From positions 2,790,001 to 2,854,000 of the forward strand of contig OZ024762.1 of assembly GCA_964016885.1 (NCBI GenBank): a DNA stretch of 64,000 bases. Reading direction: 5' to 3'. Below, piece after piece: positions 12,586 to 19,034 of the stretch. The position numbers and the translations under genes were made by a program. The stretch is from Eledone cirrhosa (taxonomy: Eukaryota). How positions within the stretch are numbered: position 1 is the first letter of the stretch; the number at the start of each line of letters is the position of its first letter. A model generated the notes under the pieces. That model did no database searches, was not told the DNA's origin, and saw only the letters and a list, made by a program, of their open reading frames with translations.

Positions 12586-15500
12586 AGTTACTTGCCTATG
12601 ACCAGTAATACTTGCCTAGGACCAGTAATACTTGCCTAGAACCAGTAATACTTGCCTAGAACCAGTAATACTTGCCTAGAACCAGTAATACTTGCCTAGG
12701 ACCAGTAATACTTGCCTAGAACCAGTAATACTTGCCTAGAACCAGTAATACTTGCCTAGGACCAGTAATACTTGCCTAGAACCAGTAATACTTGCCTAGA
12801 ACCAGTAATACTTGCCTAGAACCAGTAATACTTGCCTAGAACCAGTAATACTTGCCTAGAACCAGTAATACTTGCCTAGGACCAGTAATACTTGCCTAGG
12901 ACCAGTAATACTTGCCTAGGACCAGTAATACTTGCCTAGGACCAGTAATACTTGCCTAGGACCAGTAATACTTGCCTAGAACCAGTAATACTTGCCTAGG
13001 ACCAGTAATACTTGCCTAGGACCAGTAATACTTGCCTAGGACCAGTAATACTTGCCTAGAACCAGTAATACTTGCCTATGACCAGTAATACTTGCCTAGG
13101 ACCAGTAATACTTGCCTATGACCAGTAATACTTGCCTATGGCCAGTAATACTTGCCTAGAACCAGTAATACTTGCCTAGGACCAGTAATACTTGCCTAGA
13201 ACCAGTAATACTTGCCTAGGACCAGTAATACTTGCCTAGGACCAGTAATACTTGCCTAGGACCAGTAATACTTGCCTAGAACCAGTAATACTTGCCTATG
13301 ACCAGTAATACTTGCCTAGGACCAGTAATACTTGCCTATGACCAGTAATACTTGCCTATGGCCAGTAATACTTGCCTAGAACCAGTAATACTTGCCTAGG
13401 ACCAGTAATACTTGCCTAGGACCAGTAATACTTGCCTATGGCCAGTAATACTTGCCTATGGCCAGTAATACTTGCCTAGGACCAGTAATACTTGCCTAGG
13501 ACCAGTAATACTTGCCTATGGCCAGTAATACTTGCCTATGACCAGTAATACTTGCCTATGGCCAGTAATACTTGCCTATGGCCAGTAATACTTGCCTAGG
13601 ACCAGTAATACTTGCCTATGGCCAGTAATACTTGCCTAGGACCAGTAATACTTGCCTATGGCCAGTAATACTTGCCTATGACCAGTAATACTTGCCTAGG
13701 ACCAGTAATACTTGCCTAGGACCAGTAATACTTGCCTATGGCCAGTAATACTTGCCTAGGACCAGTAATACTTGCCTAGGACCAGTAATACTTGCCTATG
13801 GCCAGTAATACTTGCCTATGGCCAGTAATACTTGCCTAGGACCAGTAATACTTGCCTATGACCAGTAATACTTGCCTAGGACCAGTAATACTTGCCTATG
13901 GCCAGTAATACTTGCCTATGGCCAGTAATACTTGCCTATGGCCAGTAATACTTGCCTAGGACCAGTAATACTTGCCTATGGCCAGTAATACTTGCCTAGG
14001 ACCAGTAATACTTGCCTATGGCCAGTAATACTTGCCTATGACCAGTAATACTTGCCTATGGCCAGTAATACTTGCCTAGGACCAGTAATACTTGCCTATG
14101 ACCAGTAATACTTGCCTAGGACCAGTAATACTTGCCTAGGACCAGTAATACTTGCCTATGACCAGTAATACTTGCCTAGGACCAGTAATACTTGCCTATG
14201 ACCAGTAATACTTGCCTATGACCAGTAATACTTGCCTATGACCAGTAATACTTGCCTAGGACCAGTAATACTTGCCTATGACCAGTAATACTTGCCTATG
14301 ACCAGTAATACTTGCCTATGACCAGTAATACTTGCCTAGGACCAGTAATACTTGCCTATGACCAGTAATACTTGCCTATGACCAGTAATACTTGCCTAGG
14401 ACCAGTAATACTTGCCTATGACCAGTAATACTTGCCTATGGCCAGTAATACTTGCCTATGGCCAGTAATACTTGCCTATGGCCAGTAATACTTGCCTATG
14501 GCCAGTAATACTTGCCTAGAACCAGTAATACTTGCCTATGACCAGTAATACTTGCCTATGACCAGTAATACTTGCCTAGGACCAGTAATACTTGCCTATG
14601 ACCAGTAATACTTGCCTATGGCCAGTAATACTTGCCTATGGCCAGTAATACTTGCCTATGGCCAGTAATACTTGCCTATGGCCAGTAATACTTGCCTATG
14701 ACCAGTAATACTTGCCTAGGACCAGTAATACTTGCCTATGACCAGTAATACTTGCCTATGGCCAGTAATACTTGCCTATGGCCAGTAATACTTGCCTATG
14801 GCCAGTAATACTTGCCTATGGCCAGTAATACTTGCCTATGACCAATAATACTTGCTTAGGACCAATAATACTTGCCTATGACCAGTAATACTTGCCTATG
14901 GCCAGTAATACTTGCCTATGACCAATAATACTTGCTTAGGACCAGTAATACTTGCCTATGACCAGTAATACTTGCCTATGGCCAGTAATACTTGCCTATG
15001 GCCAGTAATACTTGCCTATGGCCAGTAATACTTGCCTATGGCCAGTAATACTTGCCTATGGCCAGTAATACTTGCCTATGACCAATAATACTTGCTTAGG
15101 ACCAATAATACTTGCCTAGAACCAGTAATACTTGCCTATGGCCAGTAATACTTGCCTATGGCCAGTAATACTTGCCTATGACCAATAATACTTGCTTAGG
15201 ACCAATAATACTTGCCTATGACCAGTAATACTTGCCTATGGCCAGTAATACTTGCCTAGAACCAGTAATACTTGCCTATGGCCAGTAATACTTGCCTATG
15301 GCCAGTAATACTTGCCTATGGCCAGTAATACTTGCCTATGGCCAGTAATACTTGCCTAGAACCAGTAATACTTGCCTAGGACCAATAATACTTGCCTAGG
15401 ACCAGTAATACTTGCCTATGACCAGTAATACTTGCCTATGGCCAGTAATACTTGCCTATGGCCAGTAATACTTGCCTAGAACCAGTAATACTTGCCTAGG

Positions 15501-16131
15501 ACCAGTAATACTTGCCTAGGACCAGTAATACTTGCCTAGAACCAGTAATACTTGCCTATGGCCAGTAATACTTGCCTATGGCCAGTAATACTTGCCTATG
15601 GCCAGTAATACTTGCCTAGGACCAATAATACTTGCCTAGGACCAGTAATACTTGCCTAGGACCAGTAATACTTGCCTAGGACCAGTAATACTTGCCTATG
15701 ACCAGTAATACTTGCCTATGGCCAGTAATACTTGCCTATGGCCAGTAATACTTGCCTATGGCCAGTAATACTTGCCTAGGACCAGTAATACTTGCCTATG
15801 ACCAGTAATACTTGCCTAGGACCAGTAATACTTGCCTATGGCCAGTAATACTTGCCTATGGCCAGTAATACTTGCATAGGACCAATAATACTTGCCTAGG
15901 ACCAGTAATACTTGCCTAGAACCAGTAATACTTGCCTATGACCAATAATACTTGCCTATGACCAGTAATACTTGCCTAGGACCAGTAATACTTGCCTATG
16001 GCCAGTAATACTTGCCTATGGCCAGTAATACTTGCCTAGAACCAGTAATACTTGCCTATGGCCAGTAATACTTGCCTATGGCCAGTAATACTTGCCTAGA
16101 ACCAGTAATACTTGCCTATGGCCAGTAATAC
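12586..16131. repeat. 20-bp minisatellite, ~177 copies
   Basis: Unit RCCAGTAATACTTGCCTA(GG/GA/TG), constant length across 3.5 kb. Confidence 0.98.
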
Positions 16132-18243
16132 CATCAGAAAAAATGTCACATATCAAGCAATGCCTGTGCTTGAAGATTTTTCACAGAACCAATCCCACTC
16201 TCTGAACATGGAATACATTTACCCGAAAAGAAGGTCTACATATATGAGAGAGAGGCTGATATAAATATATACAGGGTTATATACCAGAGTGACCTTCTCC
16301 TAGAGAGATATCTTAAGACTAGGAGTCGCTCCACAAGTATAATCTTTATTGGATGTTGACTCTACTCAGTTCCCCCGCCCTTTCACAGGGTTTTCTTCCC
16401 ACATTTACATACTCACACGCACTCACATGTGAACACACAGACTTCAATATATGTTAAATGATGATGATGATGATAACCATTATGAATGGTAAACAAAGTT
16501 TAATATATATTCCCTCTCTTCTGTCTCCTCTCTCCCTCACCTCACTCTCCCCCCTCTCTCTCTCTCCCCCACTCACCCCACCCCCCACACTAAAGTCAAC
16601 ACACTGACCTCAATTCAGTCACATTTTTACTTCAGGTTGAATTTATTAACACAAAACAATTCATACCTGAAATACAACACCACCACTACCATCACCACCA
16701 ACACCACTACCACTATCACCACCACCACTATCACCACCACCACTACCATCACCACCACCACTACCATCACCACCACCACCACTACCACCACCACTACCAT
16801 CACCATTACCACCACCACTATCACCACCACCACTACCATTACCACCACCGCTACATCACCACCACCACTACTATCACCATTACCACCACCACCACCACCA
16901 CCACCATCACCATCACCACCAGCACTACCACTACCATCACCACCACCATAACAACCACTACCATCACCACCACTACCCCCCCCCCCCCCCCACAACCACT
17001 ACCACCACCACACCAAATTTCTTTTTCCCATTTATTCATTGTTTGAAAGGGGCCTTGCTTAGTGAGGTGTGGAGAGGAAGAGGGGTAACTACCATGACTG
17101 ACCCCTCCAACACCCCAACAACACCACACCACCACCTCCACTCCTCCAACATCACTCCTCCAACACCACTCCTCCAACACCACTCCTCCAACACCACCAC
17201 CCCAACAACACCACACCACCACTCCTCCAACACCACACCACCACCACCCCAACAACACCACACCACCACTACCACCACTCCTCCAACACCACCACCTCAA
17301 CAACACACCACCACTAACACCACCACACCACCACCTCAACAACCCCACACCACCATCACTACCTCAACAACACCACACCACCACTCCTTCAACACCACCA
17401 CCCCAACAACACACCTCCACCACCACTCCTCCAACACCCCAACAACACCACCACTCCAACACCACCACGCCACCACCACCCCAACAACACCATGCCACCA
17501 CCACCACTCCTCCAACACCCCAACAACACCACCACTCCAACACCACCACGCCACCACCACCCCAACAACACCATGCCACCACCACCACTCCTCCAACACC
17601 ACCACCACCACACCACCACTCCTACAACACGCCACCACCACCCAACAACACCATGCCACCACCACCACTCCTCCAACACCCCAACAACACCACCACTCCA
17701 ACACCACCACGCCACCACCACCCCAACAACACCATGCCACCACCACCACTCCTCCAACACCACCACCACCACACCACCACTCCTACAACACGCCACCACC
17801 ACCCCAACAACACCATGCCACCACCACCACTCCTCCAACACCCCAACAACACCACCACTCCAACACCACCACGCCACCACCACCCCAACAACACCATGCC
17901 ACCACCACCACTCCTCCAACACCACCACCACCACACCACCACTCCTACAACACGCCACCACCACCCAACAACACCATGCCACCACCACCACTCCTCCACC
18001 ACCACTACACCACTACCCCACCACCAACACCACCACTACACCACCACCACCACCATTAATTTCTGGGTTACCTCAGAGATTTCCTGTGAGAAACAAACAA
18101 TGATATTCTCAGACTTCAGATGTCATAAAGTCCTGCTTTATCTCTTTCCTTAATATTTAGAAAATGTTTTGTTTTTGCCAGTTGTCAGATTCAACCAAGA
18201 TAAAATATATAAATTGATGTATGACATACCTCAACATCAATTT

Positions 18244-18315
18244 ATATATTTTATCTGATGAGGACGTACTGAAAAAACAACACAGTACCTCCGAAATGTA
18301 TATAATAAAATATAT
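18244..18315 (+). ncRNA. Minimal type I hammerhead ribozyme motif (copy 1)
   Basis: Stem I ATATATTTTAT/ATAAAATATAT (11 bp); CTGATGA 18255-18261; stem II GGACGTACTG/CAGTACCTCC; GAAA 18293-18296; short stem III TGTATA; predicted cleavage after ATA at 18304. Confidence 0.85.
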
Positions 18316-18331
18316 TTATTAATATTTTGAA

Positions 18332-18370
<39 letters not shown>

Positions 18371-18466
18371 CTATATATATATATGACTATCCGGATGGCT
18401 TCCAAAAACAATGGTTGCATTTTAAAAGGGTATGTCAAAGCTTATTTGTAAAACTGTTATATATTG

Positions 18467-18531
18467 TATTTTGTCTGATGAAGGCATACCATAATTTAAT
18501 TTGGTATCCCTGAAATATGTATAATGAAATA
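18467..18531 (+). ncRNA. Minimal type I hammerhead ribozyme motif (copy 2)
   Basis: Stem I TATTTTGT/ATGAAATA (two G-U pairs); CTGATGA 18475-18481; stem II AGGCATACCA/TGGTATCCCT; GAAA 18512-18515; TATGTA; predicted cleavage after ATA at 18523. Confidence 0.8.
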
Positions 18532-18673
18532 AATATGGTTTTATAAATATAGTTTCCATTTATTAATATCGTATATCTACTCCAAAAACTTGTCGAGTGC
18601 TTTATATCAGTTATAAAAATATTTACTTGTTGTATCCCAACAATTTTAAATAGAACTTTTGCATATATATATA

Positions 18674-18716
<43 letters not shown>

Positions 18717-19034
18717 TTATTTATATAAAGTCAACCCCCTCCTGTCAAATAAAGGCTACCCATACTAAGTCACACCCTCCAAACAAAACCTGTTGTCAAC
18801 AAAACATACCAACTTCCTCTCCACCCCTCCATGAAAACTCCCACAAAAACATACCATGGTCAAATTCATTGAACCATAACAAGAATGTGTGGCGGGGGGG
18901 GGGGGGGGGGGGGGCAACACACTCATACCACACAAAATATAGATATAGTCTTTATGGTGTATATATTATAATGACATTGGTGTTAAAGTGTATCAGCCTT
19001 AACTTTTCTCTGGGACTACATTAGTTATAGTGTG

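Follow-up and report, generated by a model that had tools for sequence, protein, structure and literature searches.

The two hammerhead ribozyme (HHR) motifs at this locus very probably sit in pLTR pieces from two separate Hydra-type Penelope-like element (PLE) families of high copy number, the second of which likely inserted into a (TA)n tract flanking the older first. The locus lies in a 64,000-nt stretch of the Eledone cirrhosa genome, referred to below as the window. The family labels E1 (HHR-A type) and E2 (HHR-B type) were coined in this analysis. The two motifs belong to separate families, each with thousands of genomic cores and TA flanks; the pLTR–tail–ORF–pLTR architecture is present in E2 copies, and the junction between the two pieces occurs once in the genome. 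The parts of the locus are collected in Table 1.

Table 1. Parts of the HHR locus, in window coordinates
Feature	Position	Strand	Remarks
Inverted remnant of E1 pLTR, short	18198..18235	-	38 nt; 97–100% identity with the inverted arms in E1 copies L034, L043 and L044
5'-truncated pLTR end, family E1, without tail	18234..18334	+	93–96% identical to best copies over 91–100 nt
Hammerhead A (HHR-A), type I	18244..18315	+	predicted cleavage after 18304
Predicted 219-nt inter-cleavage fragment	18305..18523	+	chimera of E1 3' end, (TA)n and E2 5' part; single copy
(TA)n microsatellite	18335..18384		TRF: 25 copies of AT, 50 nt
5'-truncated pLTR, Hydra-type PLE family E2	18386..18576	+	aligns with the two pLTRs in each of the full-length copies L170 and L172
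Hammerhead B (HHR-B), type I	18465..18534	+	predicted cleavage after 18523
E2 'tail', about 85 nt	18577..18663	+	in full-length copies, 5' leader between pLTR and ORF start
(TA)n flank 3' of E2	18663..18727		TRF

When the window was scanned on both strands with a descriptor, three hammerheads of type I emerged; their cores lie at 18255, 18475 and 44155. HHR-A has CTGATGA at 18255 and GAAA at 18293, with a stem I of 11 bp. HHR-B has its core at 18475 and GAAA at 18512, with a stem I of 8–9 bp. Stem II comprises 9 bp in both motifs, including one C.C mismatch. Both thus contain the CUGANGA, GAAA and UH core elements together with stems I and II, and both cores are intact. To determine the chance level, the surrounding 600 nt were dinucleotide-shuffled 20,000 times, which gave 40,000 strands. 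One loose core appeared in 4 of the 40,000, while two cores or a strict core appeared in none; the pair is therefore far above the chance expectation. The descriptor scan and the shuffle control agree with the initial annotation, which had described two complete type I cores on the same strand with predicted cuts after 18304 and 18523. The Rfam search that it had proposed as a check was negative, returning no hammerhead family at E ≤ 1 for 7 kb or at E ≤ 10 for 336 nt. The miRNA and other Rfam matches in the region were rejected as low-complexity artefacts of the AT repeats. The third hammerhead, with its core at 44155 and a cut after 44204, lies in a piece at 43998–44266 that belongs to a related PLE family. 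This piece carries an inverted tail on its 5' side, is preceded by (TA)n, and is 92% identical to a copy in L024 and 78–81% identical to the E2 pLTR.

Exact core matches in the animal's own genome (3.0 Gb) numbered 3,739 for E2 and 2,402 for E1, whose core pattern shares its prefix with several subfamilies; reversed controls gave 0. Genome searches separated the two halves of the locus. The query 18060–18660 retrieved copies of the 18373–18660 part at 97–99% identity, and HHR-A was absent from these copies (40 of 2,720 candidates scored). The query 18056–18334 retrieved a separate family matching 18198–18334 (40 of 346 candidates scored). Most E2 copies carry an HHR identical to HHR-B, and the E2 piece at 18386–18660 (275 nt) is 99.3% identical to L005–L007 and L011. 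The layout of the copies is of the PLE type, with (TA)n, an inverted pLTR arm with tail, a truncated body, a sense pLTR and again (TA)n. Copies L008, L044, L062, L128 and L170–L172 have pLTRs with HHR, inverted arms and a tail at one end. At least four TA repeats were found within 400 nt 3' of the core in 27 of 30 E1 loci and in all 30 E2 loci (57 of 60, taken in order of position). A tail read-through search yielded 18 atypical tail ends, all of which reached TA runs nearby.

The origin of the tail was recognised through the protein search. In L170, L171 and L172, the pLTR with its HHR is followed by the tail, and the ATG of the ORF comes about 45 nt further on; 3' pLTRs that enter (TA)n directly have no tail. 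L170 and L172 also have a long 3' UTR (1.6–1.7 kb in E2) and a second pLTR, which places their HHRs 4,297 and 3,951 nt apart; the 5' HHR core of L170 is mutated. The full span of E2 is about 4.5 kb (L170:1960–6450). Apparently intact Hydra-type ORFs of 742–745 aa, accompanied by pLTRs, are located at L170:2284–4509, L171:2175–4400 and L172:3348–5585. The 99%-identical pLTR copies and these apparently intact ORFs suggest that E2 is a young, recently active family. E1-type HHRs are found at the ends of the ORF-bearing copies L124, L125, L185, L186 and L187. Repeats with HHRs abound in this genome: many further HHR families whose stem II is unrelated in sequence were seen within 1.5 kb of E1 or E2 copies at L006:713, L011:915/887, L034:91, L036:1209, L038:827/2846, L045:1040 and L046:1009. 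At L027:905–1507 (minus strand), an E2 insertion adjoins a 201-aa frame that resembles a genuine membrane-protein exon, perhaps a TMEM229-like one.

Long frames of 743–781 aa were obtained from six E2 loci. The 742-aa ORF of E2 contains the YRDD (RT) and VVY...YVG (C-terminal GIY-YIG) motifs, and DKT, CxCX5C, CxxC and CxH (as CRH) occur in all six long frames. DKT in place of DKG was also found in the E1-flanked ORFs L185 and L186. In E1, the CxCX5C linker before the endonuclease is present in L124, L125, L186 and L187 and mutated in L185, and L125 has CNLC and CLH around the conserved E and N. The N-terminal RWK position is occupied by RWR, a conservative variant, in four of the six E2 frames (one of the others is mutated and one truncated) and in L186. 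Judged by eye at its usual position, CCHH appears to be absent from the E1 and E2 proteins. The L185 ORF is 54.9% identical to the E2 ORF over 730 aa. Pfam gave no RT or GIY-YIG match in any scanned E1 or E2 ORF, and a PDB sequence search with ORFs of these types returned nothing significant. Pfam GIY-YIG matches near two copies (L044 and L022) were discarded, as they belong to other, neighbouring elements. ESM Atlas look-alikes at 0.96–0.98 carry HTH_animal, GIY-YIG and RVT_1. The RT and GIY-YIG assignments of the E1 and E2 ORFs are accordingly putative, drawn from the motifs and these look-alikes.

The Hydra clade, as characterised in the available part of Craig et al. 2021 (PMC8557442), has a C-terminal GIY-YIG, RWK, DKT, a CxCX5C linker, CxxC and CxH and no CCHH, together with canonical HHRs, (TA)n targets and a length generally below 3 kb. 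E1 and E2 share DKT, CxCX5C, CxxC/CxH and (TA)n with members such as Hydra-1_Obim, Hydra-1_Amil and Penelope-n_HM. They differ from the clade as described there in having RWR instead of RWK and a 9-bp stem II with a C.C mismatch. E2, at about 4.5 kb with its long 3' UTR, also exceeds the 1.1–3.0 kb of the Hydra elements in the published table, the limit of 3 kb being a tendency in PMC8557442 and no strict criterion. The E2 tail is longer than the 30–40 nt given there for PLEs generally. By motifs, layout and (TA)n targets, E1 and E2 appear to be autonomous Hydra-type PLE families. The initial annotation was right to link the pair to Penelope-like pLTRs. The E1 and E2 HHR sequences are in none of the HHRs in the accessible part of File S2 of PMC8557442. 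Our literature search returned no description of either family or of mixed-family HHR pairs; the families may already be catalogued in Repbase or Dfam.

Conservation of the helices was evaluated on an alignment of 16 natural HHRs, hand-picked from 43 variants plus the third motif of the window and chosen to span families. Helix pairing was 89–99% over these rows, with 98% of cells paired in stem II, 89% in stem I and 97% in the stem III palindrome. The motifs do have the short self-complementary stem III proposed earlier. Stem II showed changes on both sides in seven of its nine pairs, and this covariation is between families. Both-side changes affected more cells than in any of the 500 shuffles, but the number of pairs showing them did not stand out in this way (179 of 500). 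The 16 rows are related and were selected via the core motif, so the conservation of the core in this alignment is by construction. Columns 21 and 54 of alignment A2 form an internal mismatch after the third stem II pair in most families, C.C in both HHRs of the pair, and the stem II pairs flanking it covary. This mismatch is possibly a conserved tertiary or protein contact.

Inspection of the locus revealed two elements with an internal (TA)n between them, instead of the one TA-flanked element described earlier. The short remnant upstream of HHR-A is, judging by its sequence, part of the inverted arm usual for PLE insertions. The E1 piece has lost 23 nt after stem I, between two 7-nt direct repeats (23 gaps relative to L044). 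The intervening (TA)n tract is the 3' flank of E1 and likely also the target site of E2. With regard to mechanism, the GIY-YIG endonuclease would nick (TA)n, reverse transcription would begin from the end of either the pLTR or the tail, and its early halt would leave short truncated copies. As every insertion would leave TA flanks, later insertions could stack beside earlier ones. E1, being the more diverged piece and the one with the deletion, was presumably inserted first; the 99.3% identity of the E2 piece makes E2 the probable later arrival. No allele with an empty site was encountered. In a full-length transcript, the HHRs of its two pLTRs, about 4.0–4.3 kb apart in E2, would normally work together as a dimer. 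The 219-nt spacing at the locus is incidental; if the plus strand were read through, the pair could form a double hammerhead, though it would have no selected role.

To our searches, the E1-(TA)n-E2 arrangement appeared once. Among 76 E1 and 115 E2 de-duplicated contexts from all retrieved loci, this locus alone had an E2 piece within about 500 nt after E1, and the (TA)n–E2 junction had the window as its sole match even when one mismatch was allowed. For the 5' end of the 219-nt unit, the genome gave two matches, the second being an E1 copy whose core is broken and which lacks E2. At the locus, TRF lists (AT)n alone and no tandem 219-nt unit. Elsewhere in the window, a 20-bp minisatellite of 177 copies occupies 12589–16131, one among 322 tandem-repeat rows. 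BLAST matches that spanned the greater part of the 219-nt unit at 84–88% (L004, L012, L140 and L142) proved to be AT-repeat alignment plus E2, and they were rejected because there is no E1 core upstream. An apparent pair at 456 nt in L115 passed a loose regex only, failed the structure scan and was left out of the counts.

The genome-wide co-location test used samples out of the 6,141 cores. Under uniform placement alone, 0.37 E1-then-E2 pairs at 150–400 nt would be expected in a genome, and the figure should be higher with a preference for TA targets common to both families. In C1:1–126 Mb, with 56 and 100 copies, the nearest E1–E2 distances were 784, 1,821 and 3,932 nt. Among the first 100 copies listed for each family, there were 8 opposite-strand pairs in E1 and 12 in E2. 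Other same-strand HHR pairs, mostly of different families, were spaced 205, 284, 339, 364, 387, 449, 458 and 496 nt apart. The 205-nt pair is at L068 (G000:C1:13820836–13823853, minus strand), where two diverged E1-type pLTRs lie on one strand with (TA)n between them. Its pLTR, (TA)n and truncated pLTR have the same anatomy as our locus and both cores are intact, which makes it a second natural case of a mixed pair. A nested, near-palindromic cluster at L040:800–1800 holds five hammerheads of two families, three on the plus and two on the minus strand, spaced 284–339 nt.

The initial annotation had called the pair retrozyme-like. A non-LTR retrozyme would here consist of two 219-nt units joined head to tail, with the unit as a whole undergoing cleavage, circularisation and retrotransposition. 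The locus does have type I HHRs on the same strand, at a spacing inside the 170–400 nt range of metazoan retrozymes, and the 20.5% GC of the interval (50 of whose 219 nt are (AT)25) is below the 45% criterion, both as given in the available text of Cervera and de la Pena 2020 (PMC7229834). A pLTR ancestry is likewise common to both; the PLE ancestry of retrozymes is argued from phylogeny in the accessible part of Li et al. (bioRxiv 10.64898/2026.07.22.740005), with mainly vertebrate sampling. However, the retrozymes covered by these two sources are amplified tandems of one unit, whereas HHR-A and HHR-B, only 70% alike over 69 nt, and their flanks do not repeat a single unit, and each HHR comes from its own ORF-bearing family. 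No same-strand neighbour within 500 nt was present among the first 100 listed copies of E1 or of E2. With a single-copy junction, separate families and no head-to-tail arrays in the samples, the 219-nt unit is a single-copy chimera and not a retrozyme; we consider the retrozyme reading scarcely credible here. The locus also resembles the metazoan PLE hammerheads of Cervera and de la Pena 2014 (PMC4209133), which, in the text available, share with E1 and E2 the massive dispersed copies, for the most part single or in opposite-strand pairs 100–700 bp apart, the long stem II, the palindromic stem III and the predicted dimeric activity. Our locus differs from these in that two different families stand on the same strand, 220 nt apart. 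Both pieces might also have arrived in one event, if a Hydra RT switched templates between the RNAs of the two families and (TA)n was added at the join. Their same orientation and close spacing fit such an event, the families are paralogous, and nested mixed insertions exist (L040). Yet the 99.3% identity of E2 against 93–96% and a deletion in E1 points to different ages, and the intervening TA tract is the normal flank of both families, which makes a single event very unlikely.

Sequential insertion leaves room for a version in which the origin is incidental, yet the locus produces a transcript whose mixed HHR pair cleaves in cis, giving a 219-nt linear or circular by-product. We regard this as unlikely. 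On paper, the nested cis double-hammerhead is fully pairable, with 8 bp between the A5' and B3' segments, 10 bp between A3' and B5', and 8 of 8 stem III pairs including two G-U; the mutual pairing of the stem III segments foreseen in the initial annotation thus holds. Intact cores and the both-side changes in stem II also speak for activity. The secondary-structure model gave −61.3 kcal/mol for the double-hammerhead and −56.3 kcal/mol for two monomers, a predicted advantage of 5 kcal/mol, but −71.0 kcal/mol for the free ensemble; the active fold is therefore 9.7 kcal/mol above the latter in a model that ignores tertiary contacts. Known systems argue for caution as well. As far as the available texts go, even the dimers of PLE HHRs show weak cleavage (PMC4209133), the Poseidon HHR required protein and showed no RNA-seq ends at its site (PMC11167929), and only one of nine Xenopus retrozyme dimers cleaved, the other eight showing no cleavage (bioRxiv 10.64898/2026.07.22.740005). 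The E1 and E2 pLTR pieces are, moreover, both 5'-truncated. Of the contigs from four sequencing runs, those of two runs presumed to be RNA gave no match, and those of two unlabelled runs included parts of the families but did not reach across the locus, a result that bears in neither direction on expression. A broader proposal, quite doubtful in our view, is that stacking in shared (TA)n recurrently makes mixed same-strand HHR pairs about 200 nt apart, which, their stems I and III being interchangeable, complement each other and give rise to small circular RNAs of chimeric sequence. Besides this locus, 1 of 60 sampled loci held a mixed pair, an estimate of roughly 100 genome-wide with a range of about 3–550. 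If the proposal were true, the locus would be a snapshot of the birth of a retrozyme from two Penelope families, and not by local tandem duplication of one pLTR.

Our preferred reading remains that of successive insertions. The locus contains real ribozyme motifs in ordinary retrotransposon debris, from new families of known Hydra-type PLEs, and their tandem arrangement is incidental. It calls for caution, since target-site stacking of Penelope fragments can yield same-strand hammerhead pairs at retrozyme spacing. For annotation, the gain is over 6,000 exact HHR cores and several long open ORFs that Rfam and Pfam did not detect, and E2 could become a model for the Hydra clade. The portions of the literature that we searched hold no observation of the first step from pLTR to retrozyme; if mixed pairs cleave and circularise, they would offer a testable route for it.
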